The notes below the pieces were generated by a model. It had not been told where the DNA came from, did not search any database, and saw only the letters and a program-made list of their open reading frames with translations. The position numbers and the translations under genes were made by a program. Positions 12,124 to 47,485 of a stretch of 64,000 nucleotides of DNA are shown here, in pieces. Source of the stretch: Lachnospiraceae bacterium (GTDB taxonomy: Bacteria > Bacillota > Clostridia > Lachnospirales > Lachnospiraceae). The stretch lies in contig JAZRJF010000089.1 in NCBI GenBank assembly GCA_045645665.1, positions 12,254-76,253 on the forward strand, written 5' to 3'. Within the stretch, counting starts at the first letter, position 1, and each line of letters starts with the position of its first letter.

Positions 12124-13728
12124 ATGAAGAACTCGAAGCGGCTGCTTTCCCTGTTTGTGACCATGGCGCTCCTCGTCGGCCTCGGCACGGGACACATCCC
12201 GCAAGTCCGGTCGGCGTCGAATACCACACAGGAATTTGTAGACGCCTTCCTCGCGGAATGCTTGGCAAAGCTGGGGCGCGGGTACTCTCCCGACAACGAA
12301 GGCGGCGGCCATTCCTGGACCCCCGATGTCGGGCGCTATAACTGCTCCGGCTTAGTGGCAAGTTCTTTGGAAGCGCTGGGTATGCCGTGTCCCGGTCTTC
12401 AGCAAGATGCGAGGTGGGACTGGGACGTCTGGGGCAAGACCGCGGACTGGAAAAGCTGGTTTTCTTCCAAATCAAACGGACAGACCGTTTCGTTTACACT
12501 CGCAAACGGAAACACCGTGCAGTACACCGTCAGAAAACCGACGAGCTCTACACCGTATCTAACGTACGACTCAAACGGCAACTGGAACGGCTATACGACC
12601 GAAGGACTGAAATATCTTTCGATACCGGGCACCATCATCATAAAGATGAACAGCTCACAATCCAGCGGCCATATGACGGTTTCTCTCGGACAATATCAAG
12701 TCTCCGGCATCTCGCTTTCGGGAAATGCATCAGCCATTGCTTCTCGTATTCCTCGAATCGAGGATCACGTTCGCCAATCATTAACCGCGCGTTATTCCGA
12801 CGGTGTGAAGGCTTCAACGTATGCCTCGAGTCCGTACTGTCTGTCCAAAAGCCTATCTCAGCTCTTAGCCGAAGGCGGCACGAAGAACGTGTACGGTCAT
12901 GAGGCGGTATGGGAGTATCGAACGCGAAGCGATTTTGCTTCTAAAACAGTGTACAATCCCATATGGCAGATTGATAGCTTGAACACCACTGCCGGCGTTA
13001 CCGTCAACAACAATCCATACGGCAAGGACACTACGGGTGCCATCTACGGTCTACTTGTACCGGATGTCCCGACTCAAAATCTGTACGGAAGCGTTGCCGT
13101 CAAAAAGGTCGATTCCTTCGGCAACACTCTCTCCGGAATTCAGTTCGGTCTGTTTTCTTACAATGACGGTGCCTACACTATCGTTAGAAATGCATTTACA
13201 GGCGCTGACGGCACGGTAACGTTCGACGGAGAAGGCTTGAAGCTAAAACAAGGGGAAACCTACTACGTCAAAGAGCTTTCGGGCAAGCACGGCTACCATA
13301 CCGACCTACAGACGTATAAGCCGGTCACGATCGGTCCCGGCACGACCTTCGTCGGAGTCGACTCCGTCTGGGTCAATGACAACTGGACAGGAAGTCTTGA
13401 GATTACTAAGACGTCAACCGGTTCGAGCACACCTCTGTCCGGCGCGGAATTTACGGTGTATCAATATGACGCAACAACGAATTCCTACAGCAAGTATGCA
13501 ATCATGCCGTATGAAGACGGTATCTATTGTATCCCCGACCTTCCCTACACAGAAACCAACCAAGGAAAATATCGCGTTGTGGAGACCGCACCGCCACCCG
13601 GCTTCGAGCTTGTCGAGAACGGCTGGAGTCGTGACTTCACGATTGGGGCGGCCGATCAAGCATTTTCCTATAGCGTCGAAAATGCCCCGGCTAAGGGTAA
13701 GGTCATCGTGAAAAAGCTTGCGCGCTAG
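12124..13728 (+). CDS. Secreted protein: papain-like (NlpC/P60- or CHAP-like) Cys/His domain followed by two SpaA/Cna-B-type (prealbumin-fold) domains
   Basis: Start at ATG 12124 behind AAGGAGG. Signal peptide MKNSKRLLSLFVTMALLVGLGTG. The candidate catalytic Cys is in RYNCSGLVASS and the His in SSGHMTVSLG. Two domains follow the pattern G-S-(V/L)-x-(V/I)-x-K...G(A/I)xFxL(F/Y)...Y..(K/V)E...P.G(Y/F). No sorting signal is present. Confidence 0.75.
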   Translation: MKNSKRLLSLFVTMALLVGLGTGHIPQVRSASNTTQEFVDAFLAECLAKLGRGYSPDNEGGGHSWTPDVGRYNCSGLVASSLEALGMPCPGLQQDARWDWDVWGKTADWKSWFSSKSNGQTVSFTLANGNTVQYTVRKPTSSTPYLTYDSNGNWNGYTTEGLKYLSIPGTIIIKMNSSQSSGHMTVSLGQYQVSGISLSGNASAIASRIPRIEDHVRQSLTARYSDGVKASTYASSPYCLSKSLSQLLAEGGTKNVYGHEAVWEYRTRSDFASKTVYNPIWQIDSLNTTAGVTVNNNPYGKDTTGAIYGLLVPDVPTQNLYGSVAVKKVDSFGNTLSGIQFGLFSYNDGAYTIVRNAFTGADGTVTFDGEGLKLKQGETYYVKELSGKHGYHTDLQTYKPVTIGPGTTFVGVDSVWVNDNWTGSLEITKTSTGSSTPLSGAEFTVYQYDATTNSYSKYAIMPYEDGIYCIPDLPYTETNQGKYRVVETAPPPGFELVENGWSRDFTIGAADQAFSYSVENAPAKGKVIVKKLAR

Positions 13729-39258: not shown

Positions 39259-41505
39259 ATGCAGACAACTAAGGATTCTATCATTCAGTTGGATTTTGCC
39301 GAAGAGATGCGCAATTCCTTTCGAGATTATGCCGTAAGTGTCATCATCGCTCGTGCTCTTCCCGATGTCAGAGACGGTTTGAAGCCGGTTCAGCGTCGTA
39401 TTCTCTACGCCATGAACGAGCTCGGTCTCGATCCGAAGAAGCCTCATAGAAAGAGTGCCCGTATCGTCGGTGATACAATGGGTAAATACCATCCGCACGG
39501 CGACTCCTCCATCTACGATGCGCTTGTTCACATGACCGAGGACTACTCTCTCGCCATTCCGCTCGTAGACGGACACGGTAACTTCGGCTCCATCGACGGA
39601 GACGGTGCTGCCGCAATGCGATACACCGAGGCACGTCTTTCCGAAGGTGCCATGACGATGCTTGAGCATTTGGACAAAGGACTCGTTACCTTTGTTCCGA
39701 ACTTCGACGATAGTGAAAAGGAGCCTGCCGTTCTGCCGGCAATGCTTCCAAACCTGCTGATCAACGGTACTACCGGTATTGCCGTAGGTATGGCTACAAA
39801 CATTCCTCCGCACAACCCGGTCGAGGTCATCGACGGTGCGATTGCCGTGATGCACGACCCGTATGTGAGCACGGACGATTTGATGCAGCTCATTCCCGGA
39901 CCGGACTTCCCGACCGGTGGCACCATTGTCAACGCAAGCGAGCTTCGCAGCCTTTACGACACCGGTGAGGGACGTCTCAGAGTTCGCGCACGTACCGTAA
40001 TCGAGCCTGGCGAATACGGCAAGAAGAACATCGTCATCACCGAGATTCCCTACACGGTAGCCGGCAACAAGACGCGACTTGTCGAGTCTTTGGTAAATGC
40101 GATGAGGGACAAGGTATTTGAAGAAATCAGCGACGTACGCGATGAATCCTCCAAAGAGGGTATCCGTATTGTCATCGAGGTTAAGAAGGATCGTGACCCG
40201 GAAAATCTTCTGAACGGTCTCTACAAAAAGACCGCGATGGAGGACACCTACTCTGCGAATTTCCTTGCCGTAAAGGACAAGCAGCCGGTACTCTTCAACT
40301 TAAAGACGTTGCTCCAGGAGTTCATCGATTTCCAGGAGGAGCTCTACACTAAGGAATACAAGTACTTATTGGATAAGGCCGAAAAGCGTCTGGAGATTGT
40401 GGGCGGCTTGATTCGCGCCGTAGACGTTATCGACTATATCATCGAGGTGTTACGCGGTTCCTCATCCATTAAGCAGGCGCGCGAATGTCTCATGCACGGA
40501 ACGATAACCGACATCCGTTTCCGCACCGAGGAAGCGAAGCTTGCCGCATCGAAATTCGACTTTACCGAGCGTCAGGCCGATGCCATCCTTGCCATGCAGC
40601 TGCAGAAGCTGATCGGACTTGAGATTTTGAAGCTCCACGAGGAGCAAGAAACTCTTGAAAAGGATATCAAGCGTTTCCAAAAGATTTTGGGCAAGCGTAG
40701 TGAGCTTTACAAGGTAATCGAGCAGCAGCTTCTCATCTTCCGCGAGCGTTTCGCAAGAGAGCGTAAGACAACCATCGCCGAGCTTTCCGTTAAGGACTAC
40801 GTTGTCGAAGAAAAGATTGAAGACCTGTGGATTCTCGTAGATCGCTTCGGCTATACAAAGGCCGTGGATTCCGGTGCCTACCAAAAGGCAGCCGCAGAGA
40901 CGCTCAGCGAGTTCACCCACAAGGTTCGCATACGCTCCAACGATAAGCTGTGCATTTTCACAGCGGAGGGCAACATGCACCAGCTGAAGGTGGCATCCAT
41001 TCCTCGTTGTCGTGTGAAGGAAAAGGGTACTCTGCTTCAGGTTCTCACTAAGATTGAGCAGGAAGAAGCGCTTCTCCTCATTCCGTACGAGGAGCTGTTC
41101 GAATCGCAGCTTCTGTTCGTCACGAAGAGTGGTTTGATCAAGCAAGTATCCGGCGTTGAGTTCGACACCAATCGTTCCGTCATCGCCTCGACCAAGCTCG
41201 AAGACGGCGACCGTCTTGTCGGCATTACCGCTCTCGGAGCAGGCGCCGTCCTTTCCAAGCACCAAAAGGTTGTCATCCTTACGGAAAAGGGACTTTCCCT
41301 CGGCTTTCCGCTCGAGGAAGTTCCCGAGCTGAAAAAGGCAAGCAAGGGCGTTAAGGCAATCACTTTGGAGAAGAAGGATCAGGTTCTCTACGGAACCGTA
41401 TTCGATGCCTCCACGGAAACCTTTACCTTCGACGGTAAAGAGTACCACGCAAAGAAGATTCGCAACCGAAGCCGCGGTGCTAAGGGCCAGAAGGCAACAC
41501 TGTAA
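39259..41505 (+). CDS. Type IIA DNA topoisomerase subunit A (GyrA/ParC family) with a short C-terminal domain and no canonical GyrA box
   Basis: 748 aa behind an AGGAGGAG RBS. Motifs are [17 protein letters not shown] and the catalytic Tyr in [10 protein letters not shown]. No Q(R/K)RGG(R/K)G motif occurs where the first CTD blade begins. Only RSRGAKG is present, at the extreme C-terminus. Confidence 0.92.
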
Positions 41506-41524
41506 CCTAACATAGATAGCCAAG

Positions 41525-41558
41525 AAAAGACCGAGCCACATATGTGACTCGGTCTTTT
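41525..41558 (+). terminator. Rho-independent terminator of the topoisomerase operon
   Basis: AAAAGACCGAGCCACAT/ATGTGACTCGGTCTTTT, a long near-perfect hairpin ending in TTTT. Confidence 0.85.
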
Positions 41559-41648
41559 CGAAGCTATATACTAGGTACTGATAATCAGCTAATTCAATCG
41601 AGAGAATCCAATCATTCTCCCCCACACACTTGAAGCCTACTTATAGGC

Positions 41649-41759
41649 TTACTTCTTTACTCTCTTCGGCTGGTATATGCCGATCTCGGAAGCCGTTCCG
41701 TTTGCTCTTTTAGCCGCATTACGACTAATCTGTGCAAGAGCCTTCCACAACTTCTTCAT
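41649..41759 (-). CDS. agrD: AgrD-like autoinducing-peptide precursor (36 aa), not in the ORF track
   Basis: ATG at 41759 has GGAGGTGG 6 nt upstream. The product is MKKLWKALAQISRNAAKRANGTASEIGIYQPKRVKK. This gives a basic amphipathic N-terminus, a short core and a YQPK tail like clostridial AgrD (YEPK/HQPE). It lies 86 nt downstream of agrB on the same strand. Confidence 0.6.
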   Translation of the reverse strand: MKKLWKALAQISRNAAKRANGTASEIGIYQPKRVKK

Positions 41760-41845
41760 ACTACCACCTCCGTTCATATATAGTTATCTGCCGAGAGGAC
41801 ATTCTCCAAGCCTCACACCTCATGTGCGACATGGTAACAAGCCCC

Positions 41846-42430
41846 TTAATACTCTTCCTGTGCATCCTTTCGTGTGAGCAACATAAGAACCGTCACTGCA
41901 AACACGGCATACGCAATTGCCTTTCCGCCTTGCGGGGCGAACTGCAGTAGCAAGATCCCGGCCAGAAACAAAAACGGGTACGTGCCGATGCTGATGGCAC
42001 GATAACGACGCTTTTCCGCCATCGACAGCGGCTTATGTACATTCTCAATCGGCGCCCAAAGATAGATGCAAATTCCGTATAGCAGAAATGAAAACAACAA
42101 GATCAGCGTCCATTCAGGCTCTGAAATCGCCTTCCAATCTAATACCGCACAACCGAAAGCTACAACCATGAGAAAGCTCAAAAAGCACGTGACATAATGC
42201 TCGGTATGATACCCACCACAAAACACGCGGGTGCCGATGAACACCAGGTAAAACACTGCCATCCCGATGTAATTTCCAGTGACAATCGCAGCGACAATGA
42301 CGATCAGGAGATTCGCAAGATTCGCAAGCGTAATCTCCATGCCATATTGGCAATATTCCCGCTCTTCCTCTTCAATGGCTTTATGCTGTGACATCTTATC
42401 CACCAGCCAAGCCGCCAAGCTCTGCAACAC
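41846..42430 (-). CDS. agrB: Accessory gene regulator B (AgrB) family membrane peptidase
   Basis: 194 aa and polytopic. The AgrB catalytic context is GTRVFCGGYHTEHYVTCFLSF (conserved R, GG-H and C). It has a GTG start with GAAAGGGG upstream, and an ATG alternative at 42394. Confidence 0.85.
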   Translation of the reverse strand: MLQSLAAWLVDKMSQHKAIEEEEREYCQYGMEITLANLANLLIVIVAAIVTGNYIGMAVFYLVFIGTRVFCGGYHTEHYVTCFLSFLMVVAFGCAVLDWKAISEPEWTLILLFSFLLYGICIYLWAPIENVHKPLSMAEKRRYRAISIGTYPFLFLAGILLLQFAPQGGKAIAYAVFAVTVLMLLTRKDAQEEY

Positions 42431-42623
42431 CTTCGGACCCCTTTCCGACCGCTTTCTACATCGTCTCCTTCAAATCGTATGCTCGTCCATTCCTTCCGGT
42501 CTCCTTAATAGCATACCGAGGCTTGCGTGACCCACAGGAATCGTTACTTCATATAAAATCACACTCGCCGTCGATATACTAACTTACTTATACCATTCTC
42601 ATGGAATAATACAACCCCTCATA

Positions 42624-42657
42624 CGTGTTTGGTATCTATGCGTGCGTGTTTGGTATC
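42624..42657 (-). promoter_or_regulatory. Candidate LytTR-regulator operator: two perfect 13-bp direct repeats with 21-bp phasing
   Basis: CGTGTTTGGTATC occurs at 42624..42636 and 42645..42657 (GATACCAAACACG on the agrB strand). The pair sits between the kinase terminator and a candidate extended -10, TGgTATAAG (42587..42595 on the minus strand). Confidence 0.6.
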
Positions 42658-42698
42658 AAAAAAGAAAAAGATGGTTTTCCTCCGTCGAAAAACCATCT
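42658..42698 (-). terminator. Rho-independent terminator after the kinase gene
   Basis: Stem AGATGGTTTT/AAAACCATCT with a 10-nt loop. On the minus strand it is followed by CTTTTTCTTTTTT. Confidence 0.8.
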
Positions 42699-42761
42699 CT
42701 CATTTCGTAACCTTATGTGGCTTCGTGTGCCGCAATCGGGCAGCATCCTTCGTGAACTACG

Positions 42762-44066
42762 TCACTCCTTTGTGCACAATATCTCACACACGAACCAGCC
42801 GTCCTCATCCTTGTAATGAAGGACGCCGTTGTATTTCTTCACAATGCCCTGCACGCTCTTGATACCCCAGCCGTGATGCTCCTTGTCTTTCTTTGTCGTC
42901 TTCAGATTCGGATTGTTCGGAAGCACCGGCTCGGGAACCGTATTTCGCACGCAAATGCTCTGCATCTTCTCCCCGCACGAAATCTCCACTCGCACTCGCT
43001 TTTCGCTCTCACAAGACATTACCGCCTCGGATGCATTGTCCAAAAGATTTGCAAGCAAAATGCACAAATCTCTTTCCTTAATAAGCGAATTCTTCAGACC
43101 ATGACAGTTCACCTGGAAAAGCACCTGCTGCTCACGCAGCTTGGTTCCCGTACGATTCAAAACAGCATCAATCAGACTGTTGTCGCTGAAGGAAAGCCTC
43201 TCTGCCAAAGCTCGTCCGTCCGCACTCAGCTGCTGCAAATAGCTGATTGCATCCTCATTCTCTCCCTTTTCAAGCAAGCTCGCCACAACATGTACGTGCT
43301 TGTTCAAATCGTGCTGAAGAATCGACACTCGACTTTTCAGTTCGGAAATCTCAACGTCCTGTAGCTCATTTTCCTGAAGCAGACCGATTATTCTCTCTTG
43401 TCTGCGATTGGTCGCGGAAAGCACACTGATTCTCCACAGAACGGTACCCCCGATTATGAAAAGGACAACGAACAATACCGCCGGCACATTCATCTGATTT
43501 GTCTCCATGCGATTCACCACGTGTGTCAACAAGACAAGCACAATCGTCGCAATCACAAGGAAGAACAGGCTGAGCATCGTACCGTCCAATGCGCTGAGCG
43601 AAATCAGCTGCTTACGGTTCAACATCACAAAGACGACGCCGAACACAATTTTGATTAGAAAGCCGGTTACAAGAATGTAGATTCGGCCGCTATAGGTCGC
43701 ACTCATCATTGCAATGGCATTGTCACCACGTATCCAAGTAAACAGATTCAACGTAAGCACACTTGCGCCGATAAGTATCACGCCCCAGCAAGCAGCCAAA
43801 AACAATCTTCTCCACCAAGAGCATCGTACGAGTACCACGGAAAATATAAACGCCAACGTCATATAAGTCGCCGCTCCGAGATATCCATCAAACACTGTGA
43901 GGACATTGAATATAGACACGCAGGTTGCATAGATTGCCGCAAAGATTACCGCCAGTATCATCGTCTGCTTTCGGTTACGTCGATACTCTCCACAAGAAAG
44001 CACGAGAATCAACAGTAGCGCACTACTTAGGACGTTAAAGCCGATTTCGATAAACCAATTACTCAT
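42762..44066 (-). CDS. AgrC-like sensor histidine kinase (polytopic sensor + GHKL ATPase)
   Basis: 434 aa with about 6 N-terminal TM helices. H-box region VSILQHDLNKHVHVV. The ATPase part has LLANLLDNASEA and HHGWGIKSVQGIVKKYNG. Its start overlaps the RR stop (ATGA). Confidence 0.85.
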   Translation of the reverse strand: MSNWFIEIGFNVLSSALLLILVLSCGEYRRNRKQTMILAVIFAAIYATCVSIFNVLTVFDGYLGAATYMTLAFIFSVVLVRCSWWRRLFLAACWGVILIGASVLTLNLFTWIRGDNAIAMMSATYSGRIYILVTGFLIKIVFGVVFVMLNRKQLISLSALDGTMLSLFFLVIATIVLVLLTHVVNRMETNQMNVPAVLFVVLFIIGGTVLWRISVLSATNRRQERIIGLLQENELQDVEISELKSRVSILQHDLNKHVHVVASLLEKGENEDAISYLQQLSADGRALAERLSFSDNSLIDAVLNRTGTKLREQQVLFQVNCHGLKNSLIKERDLCILLANLLDNASEAVMSCESEKRVRVEISCGEKMQSICVRNTVPEPVLPNNPNLKTTKKDKEHHGWGIKSVQGIVKKYNGVLHYKDEDGWFVCEILCTKE

Positions 44067-44797
44067 ATTCTAAGTACTCCCCTCTTCAACATCTCAAGCT
44101 TTACGTCTTGCACGCGGTGTCGGCTGATTGGAATCGATTCGCCGTTGACCAGCACCACATTTTCACGTTCAATCGTCAAAACCTTAGAAGCGTTCACAAG
44201 ATATCTGCTGTGACAGCATACAAAGCCGTTGGCCGCCAGTTCGTCTTTCCACTTAGAAAGAGAACCTCGCGCCACATACTGCCCTTTGTCCGTTACAAAA
44301 TGCAACCTCCGCGATTGCGTCATCACATAATTCAGTTCGCCGATCGGAAGCTTCGTCGCCTGCGGCCCCTCGTCGGTTAGATTCTCTATGTACAGCTCGC
44401 GGTACCGATTCTCATACACCTTATACACTTGGTGAAATGCACTGCGCATATCCTGCTCAAAGCTATCCTTGCGAACAAAATACGTCGGACTATAACGCAG
44501 CGAATCAAACACCAAATGCTCATGATCCGTAATAAACACAACGATGGTCGACGGCTCACAATCACAAACCCGCCGGCTCAATTCAAAGCCGTCCATCTGC
44601 GGCATCTGAATGTCACTGAACAACACCTGATACGGCATCTGTTCGTGCGCGCCGAGCAGCTCGTTACAGTCTTCGAATGCGTCCACAGTCGCCTCTATAT
44701 TGTGCTCTCCACATAGCAAAAGAACGCTTTCGCGTATCCGAGAAAGCATTCCTTTGTCATCATCACATATTGCAATTCTCACAGCCATTCTCCTCAC
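44063..44797 (-). CDS. LytTR-family response regulator (AgrA-like)
   Basis: Receiver domain (IAICDDD...FSDIQMPQMDG) plus a LytTR DNA-binding domain (...LHFVTDKGQYVARGSLSKWKDEL...FVCCHSRYLVNASKV). The start is either GTG 44797 or ATG 44788. Confidence 0.88.
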   Translation of the reverse strand: MRRMAVRIAICDDDKGMLSRIRESVLLLCGEHNIEATVDAFEDCNELLGAHEQMPYQVLFSDIQMPQMDGFELSRRVCDCEPSTIVVFITDHEHLVFDSLRYSPTYFVRKDSFEQDMRSAFHQVYKVYENRYRELYIENLTDEGPQATKLPIGELNYVMTQSRRLHFVTDKGQYVARGSLSKWKDELAANGFVCCHSRYLVNASKVLTIERENVVLVNGESIPISRHRVQDVKLEMLKRGVLRI

Positions 44798-44899
44798 GTG
44801 TACCGGGCATATACCTCTTGTAATAGAGTACCATTATTTCGGCAAAAAGTAAATGCTTATTTGTCAACACGTGACGGAAAATGGCCGTTTTGATTCCTT

Positions 44900-47485
44900 T
44901 CATCCCTGCACGGAAGCCACAAACGCTCCATCCTCTACATCGAGCACAATCGTATCACCCGGATGCACCTTGTCCTCGAGAATGAGTCTCGCGCTCATCG
45001 TCTCGACGTGCTTCTGAAGATATCGCTTCAACGGTCTTGCACCGTAGATCGGGTCAAATGCCGCCTCTACGGCATACTCTCTCGCAGCGTCCGTCAAGCT
45101 AACCGAGATTCTGCGGTCGTGCAGTCTTTGATTCAGCTCCGCCAGTAACAAATCGATGATTCCGCTGATGTTGTCCTTCGTCAATGGCTTGAACAATATC
45201 GTCTCATCTAAGCGGTTGAGAAACTCCGGTCGAAAATGCGCACGCAGCCGCATCATAACGCCTTCCTCACAAGCAGGCTCGATGCTACCGTCCTCTCTCG
45301 TGCCCTCAAGCAACAAATCCGAGCCGATGTTCGAGGTCATAATCAAGATTGTATTCTTAAAGTCCACGGTACGTCCCTGAGAATCCGTAATACGTCCGTC
45401 ATCCAACACCTGAAGCAGCACATTGAACACATCCGGATGTGCCTTTTCCACCTCGTCGAACAGCACTACAGCGTACGGCTTTCTACGAATGGCTTCCGTC
45501 AGCTGACCGCCCTCGTCGTAACCCACATAGCCGGGAGGCGCTCCGATCAGACGTGCCACGGAGTGCTTCTCCATATACTCACTCATATCGATGCGAACCA
45601 TGTTCTGCTCGTTGTCGAACAGTGCCTCCGCCAGCGCCTTCGCCAGCTCCGTCTTTCCGACACCGGTAGGTCCGAGGAACAAAAATGAGCCGATCGGTCT
45701 GTCCGGGTCCTTAATGCCCGCCTTAGAACGAATGATGGCCTCCGTCACCTTCGTCACGGCCTCATCCTGGCCTACGACGCGCAAATGCAGCTCCTCGTCC
45801 AGTCTCAACGTCTTGTTGCGCTCACTCTCCGTCAGCTTTGCCACCGGAATACCGGTCCAACGCGATACGATTCGAGCGATTTCCTCCTCGTCCACAGTCT
45901 CGTGAACCATCGTATTCGCCTTTGCACGAAGCTCCTCCTCTGCGCGACGAAGCTCCTGCTGCAGCTCGGGCAAACGACCGTACTTCAGCTCGGCAGCCTG
46001 CTCCAGATTATAATGGCGCTCCGCCTCGGCAATGCGGTGATTCAGTTCCTCAAGCTCCTCCTTCATGCGGCGTACACGCTCGAGCTCTGCCTTTTCATTG
46101 TCCCACTGCGCCTTTGCCGTAGCAAAGCTTTCTCGCACCTCGGCCAGCTCCTTTTGCAGTGCCGCAAGGCGCTCCTGACTCAGCGAATCCTCTTCCTTCT
46201 TCAGCGCCGCCTCTTCGATCTCCAGCTGCATCATAGTGCGCTTCGCATCGTCCAACTCGGTCGGCATGGAATCAAGCTCTGTCTTAATCAAGGCGCACGC
46301 CTCGTCTACCAAATCAATCGCCTTATCGGGCAGGAAACGGTCCGTGATATATCGATTCGACAGAACCGCCGCATTGACAAGCGCACTATCGGCAATCTTT
46401 ACGCCGTGAAACACCTCATAACGCTCCTTCAAGCCTCGCAAAATGCTGATGGTATCCTCCACCGTCGGCTCCGTTACCAACACCGGCTGGAATCGTCTTT
46501 CAAGTGCCGCATCCTTCTCCACGTATTTGCGGTATTCGTTCAGCGTCGTTGCACCGATACAATGCAGCTCGCCTCGCGCCAGCATCGGCTTCAGCATGTT
46601 GCCGGCATCCATCGCTCCGTCTGTCTTACCGGCACCGACAATGGTATGCAACTCATCAATGAACAAGATGATTCGTCCCTCGCTCTTCTTAACCTCCTCA
46701 AGCACGGCCTTCAGGCGCTCCTCGAATTCGCCACGGTATTTTGCTCCCGCCACGAGTGCTCCCATATCAAGTGCGAACAGCGTCTTATCCTTCAGCGTCT
46801 CCGGCACATCGCCCTGCACAATTCGCTGCGCCAAGCCTTCCACAACCGCCGTCTTTCCGACTCCGGGCTCACCGATCAACACCGGGTTGTTCTTCGTCTT
46901 ACGCGACAGAATACGCACCACATTACGAATCTCCGCGTCGCGTCCGATGACCGGGTCGAGCTTTTGCTGCTTCGCACGCTCCACAAGGTCATAGCCGTAC
47001 TTAGCAAGTGTATCGTACGTAGCCTCCGGATTGTCCGTCGTCACCTGCTGATTACCTCGCACCTCCGCAAGCACCTGCAAAAAGCGCTCCCGCGAGATAC
47101 CGAACTCCTGAAACAGCTGACGCAAGCCCTTGCCGGCATGACGAAGCATACTAAGAAACAGATGCTCCACGCTCACATAAGCGTCTCCCATCGCCTTAGC
47201 CTCATCCTCCGCATAAATCAAAGTCTTGTTGAGCTCCTGCGACATCCGCAAGTCTCCGCCCTGCACCTTCGTCAAATGCTCTATGAGCCCCCTCACCTGC
47301 GCCTGAAATACCTCTTTTTGAATCTCAAGCCGCGTAAGCAGCTGCGGAATCAACCCTTCCGCATCCGACAACAGCGCATAAAGCAAATGCTCCGGCTGCA
47401 ATTCTTGATTTCCGAAATCATAAGCAATTCTCTCACAGGACTGAATTGCTTCGATTGATTTTTGTGTGAACTTACTGATATTCAT
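44900..47485 (-). CDS. clpB: ATP-dependent chaperone ClpB
   Basis: 861 aa with a Clp_N domain, two AAA+ modules (GEPGVGKTA; GPTGVGKTE) and a long middle coiled coil. GGAGGAG RBS. Confidence 0.95.

Follow-up and report, generated by a model that had tools for sequence, protein, structure and literature searches.

Much has been learned about agr-type peptide signaling in pathogens but very little about it in commensal gut Clostridia, and the described systems closest to the one reported here include several in which Ser takes the place of the ring-forming Cys of the AgrD precursor. Here we describe a 36-amino-acid (aa) precursor of this kind, encoded by a short open reading frame (ORF) at 41649-41759 on the minus strand of a 64,000-nucleotide (nt) stretch of contig JAZRJF010000089.1 (forward-strand positions 12,254 to 76,253), which we call the window. 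It lies in what appears to be a complete agr-type quorum-sensing locus of an uncultured Lachnospiraceae bacterium. We consider it likely that the precursor is a genuine Ser-nucleophile AgrD from which AgrB would make a cyclic pheromone that is, at least initially, a lactone. The locus is complete and offers a clear case of a Ser-type (lactone-predicted) agr system, which can be set against four described ones.

The AgrD of Clostridium thermocellum (Acetivibrio/Hungateiclostridium), Clo1313_2818, is also from the class Clostridia and likewise has a Ser five residues before the aromatic residue that starts its tail (PMC5322536). It also shares the Ala directly before that Ser, a comparison that follows the published description. 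A synthetic standard served to confirm its product, a tail-free 5-residue lactone, by liquid chromatography–tandem mass spectrometry (LC-MS/MS) (Verbeke et al. 2017, PMC5322536). However, the C. thermocellum agrD is an orphan gene that has neither agrB nor agrC nor agrA beside it, whereas the window holds the full four-gene circuit, and C. thermocellum is a thermophile from a different family. In Staphylococcus (pseud)intermedius, too, Ser replaces the ring Cys of AgrD, there giving a functional lactone autoinducing peptide (AIP) (Ji et al. 2005, reviewed in PMC3673130 and PMC12312760), and changing this Ser to Cys lowered RNAIII expression (PMC3673130). That system differs from ours in its gene order (agrBDCA, with RNAIII), in its nonameric AIP with a 4-residue tail, and in the long acidic C-terminal tail of its AgrD, which is of the PF05931 type, whereas the window peptide gives no PF05931 match.

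The Enterococcus faecalis FsrD product, GBAP, is a Ser-linked lactone that an AgrB homolog produces and an AgrC/AgrA-type pair senses (PMC3673130, PMC12312760), but it has a 9-residue macrocycle within an 11-residue peptide, and fsrD lies inside the 3′ portion of fsrB, in a frame on which the sources disagree. The cyclic AIP of Ruminiclostridium cellulolyticum comes from a clostridial agr system and has a tail-free 5-residue core (Molloy et al. 2021, PMC8251862), as predicted here; unlike the window peptide, it uses a Cys nucleophile, and its thiolactone is converted to a lactam by an S-to-N shift. The final signal can thus differ from the product of AgrB, and the fate of tail-free Ser lactones is left explicitly unresolved in that study (PMC8251862). 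A 2025 survey of peptides made on ribosomes and then modified (RiPPs) in the human microbiome gives the nucleophile for AgrB as “Cys or Ser”, and AIPs predicted from gut Lachnospira were synthesized, which we do not claim to be Ser-type (PMC11953309). The first-pass annotation of the window took lactone AIPs to be known only from staphylococci and little explored in Clostridia, a view to be qualified in the light of E. faecalis GBAP and of the LC-MS/MS identification in C. thermocellum (PMC5322536).

The features that carry the argument are given below, with related loci on other contigs denoted by L numbers.

41649..41759, minus strand: agrD, the 36-aa AIP precursor (ORF and translation, TIGR04223 match, codon changes, S24 tests)
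Parts of AgrD: MKKLWKALAQISRNAAKRANGTA-SEIGI-YQPKRVKK, that is, amphipathic leader (residues 1-23), predicted ring (Ser24-Ile28) and short basic tail (residues 29-36)
41764..41771, minus strand: ribosome-binding site (RBS) GGAGGTGG, read from the sequence, with GGAGGTG at an equal distance in L003-L006
41846..42430, minus strand: agrB, membrane cysteine peptidase/cyclase, 194 aa from a GTG start (PF04647)

The reading frame and the Cys-free 36-aa translation that had been proposed were confirmed: agrD runs from an ATG at 41759-41757 to a TAA at 41651-41649 and encodes MKKLWKALAQISRNAAKRANGTASEIGIYQPKRVKK, which contains no Cys, 10 Lys or Arg residues and a single acidic residue (Glu). Also as proposed, it lies directly downstream of agrB on the same strand, with a gap of 86 nt, and the agrB product matches PF04647. 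The strong RBS of the first-pass annotation is present as the octamer GGAGGTGG, with TAGT between it and the ATG; the 6-nt spacing given for it holds only when counted from the GGAGG(T) core (6-7 nt), the octamer itself being 4 nt away. An in-frame ATG at 41777, 18 nt 5′ of this start, would give a 42-aa form beginning MNGGGS. Its reading frame crosses the RBS and the ATG is missing in the closest relative, L003, from which we take the 36-aa form to be the correct gene. A family hidden Markov model (HMM) search of the six-frame translation of the window found no second AgrD-like ORF.

The description of the peptide as unannotated was correct for the ORF track used at the time, but not more widely: the exact 36-aa sequence is already present in an NCBI-derived protein set, from a contig of 78,366 bp, and gene calls for it exist on two Logan contigs. 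A homology search with the 42-aa form as the query returned four clusters at 78-100% identity to the AgrD peptide, and the window AgrB as the query led to two Lachnospiraceae metagenome-assembled genome loci. The contigs of the relatives share a gene string with the window, which runs from ClpB through a LytTR regulator, a kinase and AgrB to the peptide, with a topoisomerase IV gene converging on it.

Since agrD is too short to pass the ORF cut-offs in common use and scores under the curated HMM threshold (see below), one could suspect a chance open frame or a non-coding stretch of the agrB 3′ region. The comparison with relatives speaks against this. The frame, the 36-codon length and the upstream GGAGGTG are kept in five related loci whose AgrB proteins are as little as 43% identical to that of the window. 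In L004, where AgrB is 55% identical, the AgrD peptide is 86% identical, and 20 of the 36 codons differ, 15 of them synonymously and 5 non-synonymously, a ratio that implies purifying selection on the AgrD protein. Across the related loci, AgrD identity is 78-94% where AgrB identity is 43-92%, and public assemblies carry independent gene calls for agrD. At the level of sequence comparison, the idea of a chance ORF is effectively refuted, and agrD is, as judged from its codons, a real gene under purifying selection.

AgrD genes are expected to be small ORFs of ~35-55 aa adjacent to and co-oriented with agrB, as the 36-aa ORF is. Such an AgrD-like ORF is also found beside agrB in L003-L009, L013, L014, L016-L018, L021-L025 and L030. 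Relatives were collected by three routes: a profile of four close peptides recovered 11 small peptides at E<=1e-3 from 1.84 billion representative proteins; distant AgrB homologs (25-52% identity) were located on contigs and the small ORFs downstream of them were read; and a further search started from a sister peptide. Residues 2-35 of the window AgrD align to model positions 1-34 of 38 of TIGR04223 (NCBIfam “AgrD family cyclic lactone autoinducer peptide”) with 17.5 bits and E=0.0036, and together with its closest relatives it falls in a range of 15-18 bits. The curated cut-off of this model is 19 bits. All 17 diverse family members match it, 8 of the 10 relatives scored individually pass the cut-off (19.8-51.4 bits), and one relative carries the IMG label “cyclic lactone autoinducer peptide”. 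The AgrD-like identity that had been proposed is thus borne out by the profile match together with a graded series of agrB-adjacent relatives that reaches 51 bits. Of the two HMMs suggested as a check, TIGR04223 gave a match, albeit at a sub-cut-off score, and PF05931 gave none. The latter, staphylococcal-type profile is uninformative here, as it hit neither the peptide nor, at E<=1, any of the 17 relatives.

The layout of the peptide also resembles that of an AgrD, as first suggested, with an amphipathic basic N-terminus (hydrophobic moment 0.63 and mean hydrophobicity -0.30 for residues 1-18 at 100 degrees per residue), a 5-residue core, and a [Y/H/F]QPK tail. The tail, YQPKRVKK, keeps the conserved Q30 and P31, but it is only 8 aa long, has no acidic residue, and lacks the second Pro (the K.P of most relatives). 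In the window AgrD and its closest relatives, it is without that second Pro and the K/E-rich extension, and we attribute the failure to reach the TIGR04223 cut-off to this truncation. The window peptide appears to be the short-tailed end of a continuous AgrD sub-family, and what seems particular to it and its nearest kin is the combination of a very short, purely basic tail with a sub-threshold HMM score. This matters for annotation: the closest members of the sub-family sit just below the NCBIfam cut-off and below common ORF-length filters.

Three independent comparisons place Ser24 in the ring-forming position. Substitution in silico of S24C raised the TIGR04223 score from 17.5 to 21.0 bits (+3.5), and S24A lowered it to 14.1 (-3.4); for the best-scoring sister peptide, the same changes gave 54.7 and 47.7 bits, respectively, versus 51.4 for the native sequence (+3.3 and -3.7). 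This gain and loss imply that Ser24 falls in a column for which the model ranks Cys first and Ser next, at roughly 2:1 Cys to Ser as estimated from the score differences and the HMMER background frequencies. In a joint alignment with the Cys-type AgrDs of L037-L042 (...AANSRCVFIY-HQPKQP...), whose AgrBs are ~28-29% identical to that of the window, the Cys falls in the Ser24 column. Within the 17-sequence family alignment, the only invariant columns are Ser24 and Gln30 (of the YQP motif), with Ala16 and Pro31 near-invariant. Ser24 is invariant as well in the 11 clusters from the 1.84 billion-protein scan and in the 23 Ser-type clusters of the sister family, some with >100 member sequences. All of the AgrDs that we recovered in agrB-agrD order, next to AgrBs 29-92% identical to the window AgrB, carry Ser. 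The proposal that Ser occupies the ring-forming position is therefore upheld by the score changes, by the alignment with Cys-type precursors and by invariance in the family, and we read Ser24 as the nucleophile column.

By the same comparisons, Ser at this position appears as a clade-wide invariant feature rather than a one-off substitution, and Ser-type AgrDs, as read from these sequences, are numerous in gut metagenomes and already inside the NCBI AgrD model. Its presence in the recovered relatives with agrB-agrD order, its place in that model and the C. thermocellum precedent together indicate that this is not a rare chemistry new to Clostridia. In L037-L042 (about 1289-1495 in each), agrD lies immediately upstream of agrB, the opposite order, and encodes a Cys-type precursor, so that in this sample the Ser/Cys split coincides with the agrB/agrD gene order.

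We also considered whether AgrB might instead release a linear pheromone for export, or close the ring through another hydroxyl such as that of Thr22. Thr22 is invariant in the closest five sequences, as such a role would require, but the wider family has R, A, K, S or V in its place, while Ser24 never changes and shares its exact column with the Cys nucleophile. The lack of conservation outside the closest relatives led us to reject Thr22 as an alternative nucleophile. In C. thermocellum, activity was seen with the cyclic pentapeptide but not with the linear form (PMC5322536). Either variant seems to us very improbable. A possible second nucleophile of a different kind is seen in L008:3587-3727 (...KKACGSASWWDC-YQPKEP) and L014:2055-2219 (...KRACGAASRWET-YQPKEP), which are Ser-type but have an extra Cys that stands nine residues ahead of the tail, where the window AgrD has Asn20 (N20C adds 1.8 bits on TIGR04223). 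Candidate products for these two are a 5-residue lactone, a 9-residue thiolactone, or both.

The size of the ring depends on where the tail is cut. In the Listeria monocytogenes (CFMFV/YEPK) and Clostridium perfringens (CLWFT/HQPE) precursors, cleavage is just before the aromatic residue or His, in agreement with the register S24-E-I-G-I / Y29-Q-P, which puts the Ser five residues before the predicted cleavage site. The C. thermocellum register, S25-F29 / Y30, agrees as well (PMC5322536). A cut after Tyr29 would give a 6-residue ring, SEIGIY, also closed by Ser24. Macrocycles of this size are reported for some agr systems (PMC12312760), and position 29 is a conserved aromatic or His (Y/H/F) in the family. 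We nevertheless think this larger ring improbable, as the characterized precursors with this tail motif are cut before this residue and position 29 is less variable than the true ring positions 26 and 28.

AgrB matches PF04647 over model positions 4-184 of 185 (E=4.2e-34, 117.9 bits), has about 6 hydrophobic segments, and is matched exactly by an NCBI-derived protein (P0006) of 182 aa, 94% of the ORF. Peptidase activity of Staphylococcus aureus AgrB needs R70, G75, H77 and C84 (PMC10196373), to which R68, G73, H75 and C82 of the window AgrB correspond; these four are invariant in 8 homologs. The pairing of H75/C82 with H77/C84 comes from a BLASTP alignment to the S. aureus AgrB sequence. AgrB thus appears to retain the residues essential for peptidase activity. 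Searches of PDB sequences with the window and S. aureus AgrBs as queries found no solved AgrB. The most distant AgrB homolog retrieved (P0013, 27% identity) occurs on 14 contigs. At its locus (L011/L012:3001-4165), neither a kinase nor a regulator gene lies nearby, and no small ORF resembles agrD; a gene for a solute-binding protein precedes it and one for a 186-aa Cys-rich protein follows. P0013 may be a peptidase of the AgrB kind that acts on another substrate.

On the staphylococcal model, from which all of the following steps are inferred, the amphipathic basic leader would take the 36-aa propeptide to the membrane, where Cys82 of AgrB, helped by His75, Arg68 and Gly73, would cut between Ile28 and Tyr29, releasing the tail YQPKRVKK and keeping Ile28 on Cys82 as an acyl-enzyme thioester. 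The side-chain hydroxyl of Ser24 would then attack this thioester to form a 5-residue macrolactone, Ser-Glu-Ile-Gly-Ile, rather than the usual thiolactone, and a second protease would remove the leader. The exported peptide would be sensed by a 7-segment membrane kinase that phosphorylates a LytTR regulator, and the regulator would bind two ATACCAAACACG repeats and activate agrBD, closing an autoinduction loop. AgrD probably yields an O-linked (lactone) pheromone by this route.

Where the leader is cut bears on whether the lactone would last. Ala precedes the Ser in 15 of the 17 family members, and this near-invariant Ala-Ser junction, together with the Ala/Ser cleavage predicted (by SignalP) for C. 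thermocellum, suggests a tail-free or very short-tailed product. O-to-N acyl migration at neutral pH is established peptide chemistry. If the leader were cut between Ala23 and Ser24, the alpha-amine freed on Ser24 could react with the ester on its own side chain, and this acyl shift would convert the lactone to a head-to-tail lactam, cyclo(SEIGI); the mature signal would then not be a lactone at all. The Ser-type AIP of C. thermocellum is tail-free with a predicted Ala/Ser leader cut (PMC5322536), and tail-free thiolactones of the Cys type do rearrange to lactams by an S-to-N shift (Molloy et al., PMC8251862). However, the C. thermocellum product matched a synthetic standard that is described as a lactone (Verbeke et al., PMC5322536), and any exocyclic tail residue would block the shift. 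We regard a lactam as the mature signal as possible, though on the unlikely side.

Some of the evidence weighs against a Ser-nucleophile AgrD that yields a 5-residue lactone. The score of 17.5 bits is under the TIGR04223 cut-off of 19, and a Pfam scan (E<=10) gave the window peptide no AgrD hit. The C-terminal tail is unusually short, wholly basic and has a single Pro, and cleavage of S. aureus AgrD requires the acidic tail residues D33/E34 (PMC10196373). The profile searches that yielded only Ser-type relatives used Ser-containing queries, which introduces some bias. The 6-residue macrocycles of some agr systems (PMC12312760) leave a choice here between SEIGI and SEIGIY, and in a tail-free Ser product the lactone might not last, a point left open in PMC8251862.

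The remaining parts of the locus, again given one per line, would complete a signaling circuit.

44063..44797, minus strand: agrA-like response regulator, receiver plus LytTR, 244 aa (PF00072, PF04397)
42762..44066, minus strand: agrC-like sensor histidine kinase, 434 aa (PF14501 HATPase_c_5, E=2.6e-22)
42666..42701, minus strand: terminator-like hairpin and T-run after the kinase gene (15-pair stem, T-rich tail)
42624..42656, minus strand: two direct repeats ATACCAAACACG with 21-bp periodicity, a putative LytTR site upstream of agrBD
42587..42595, minus strand: extended -10-like element TGGTATAAG, the putative agrBD promoter, read from the sequence
41516..41567, both strands: bidirectional terminator hairpin serving agrBD (minus) and, from the other side, the gene for topoisomerase IV subunit A (plus, convergent)

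In minus-strand order, the agrA-like regulator and agrC-like kinase are followed by the terminator, the LytTR boxes and promoter, agrB, and agrD, so that all agr circuit parts (AgrA-like regulator, AgrC-like kinase, promoter boxes, AgrB and AgrD) appear to be present. Residues 1-210 of the kinase contain 7 predicted membrane segments, and its H-box, LQHDLNKH, is at His252, in line with a polytopic sensor joined to an HPK10-type kinase core. The regulator scores 26 bits against NF046049 (quorum_RR_AgrA), far under the cut-off of 400, and for this reason we call it AgrA-like rather than an AgrA ortholog. The two ATACCAAACACG repeats are perfect, and the pair occurs once in the window versus 0 expected by chance. 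Repeat pairs with the same 21-bp spacing are found at the equivalent place in L003-L006, their sequences differing where the regulators have diverged. This geometry is as expected for LytTR/AgrA sites and implies a putative autoinduction of agrBD. The -10-like element TGGTATAAG lies ~28 nt downstream of the second repeat; it was not listed by a consensus promoter scan, which also requires a -35 hexamer.

The hairpin at 42666..42701 would separate the regulator-kinase unit from the agrBD unit. The one at 41516..41567 has a predicted energy of -34.1 kcal/mol (z = -8.25), with a U-rich stretch after it on the minus strand. A candidate leader hairpin upstream of agrB (~42530-42570, minus strand) was rejected: it is not significant (z = -1.6) and is without a T-run. 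An Rfam scan of 41400-45000 found no known RNA family, only one sub-threshold chance match. The corresponding region is more elaborate in L005, where the 964-bp kinase-agrB intergenic region (L005:4403-5366) holds two copies, ~315 bp from one another, of a module made up of a repeat pair CTACCAGTT with 21-bp spacing, a -10-like box, and a hairpin that is strong, GC-rich and followed by a T-run. From each copy a short terminated transcript of ~80 nt might arise, as a small RNA or as an attenuated leader. A similar hairpin lies just upstream of agrB in L004, with the loop motif ACCAGTGTTC in common with L005.

Comparison of the window with related loci also shows that the signal is conserved where the sensors are not. 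Relative to L005, flanking housekeeping proteins are 85-88% identical (ParC 88%, ClpB 85%), AgrA, AgrC and AgrB only 38-43%, and AgrD 78%; across the comparisons with L003-L007, AgrD is the most conserved agr-locus component. Among the close relatives, variation in the ring is limited to positions 3 (I/F/Y) and 5 (I/V). Identical rings are predicted for L004 and L005 (SEYGV) and for L006 and L007 (SEFGV), with AgrC sensor domains only 43-48% identical, and in loci with identical rings AgrB, AgrC and AgrA are 36-50% identical. This pattern is the opposite of that in staphylococci, where AgrA stays constant and it is the signal and the sensor that are hypervariable. Such conserved rings with diverged sensors suggest that related Lachnospiraceae may share signals.

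A broader proposal is that the window belongs to a large Ser-type clade in gut Lachnospiraceae-like Clostridia, that these bacteria use a cross-species signal “dialect”, and that the Ala/Ser junction leads first to tail-free lactones and from these, by O-to-N shift, to cyclic pentapeptides. We put this forward tentatively and think it doubtful as a whole. If true, the shared rings would amount to a dialect understood across species, unlike the private, hypervariable specificity groups of staphylococci. The clade could serve as a test bed for how readily AgrB forms an oxo-ester versus a thio-ester, for whether tail-free Ser lactones persist or rearrange to lactams, and for signal sharing between different Lachnospiraceae species.

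Some related loci have additional genes next to agrD. In L004 (5930-6778) and L007 (3981-6337), three same-strand genes that are absent from the window lie after agrD and before the topoisomerase IV gene; they encode two membrane proteins of ~285 aa and an ABC ATPase, and may be a regulated target or a peptide-linked transporter. In L009/L010 (3846-3983, 5820-6591), a Ser-type agrD (SLGGY-HQPKEP) is followed by a 45-aa ORF with a signal-peptide-like N-terminus and by a gene for a large RHS/YD-repeat protein, both of which may be quorum-regulated targets.

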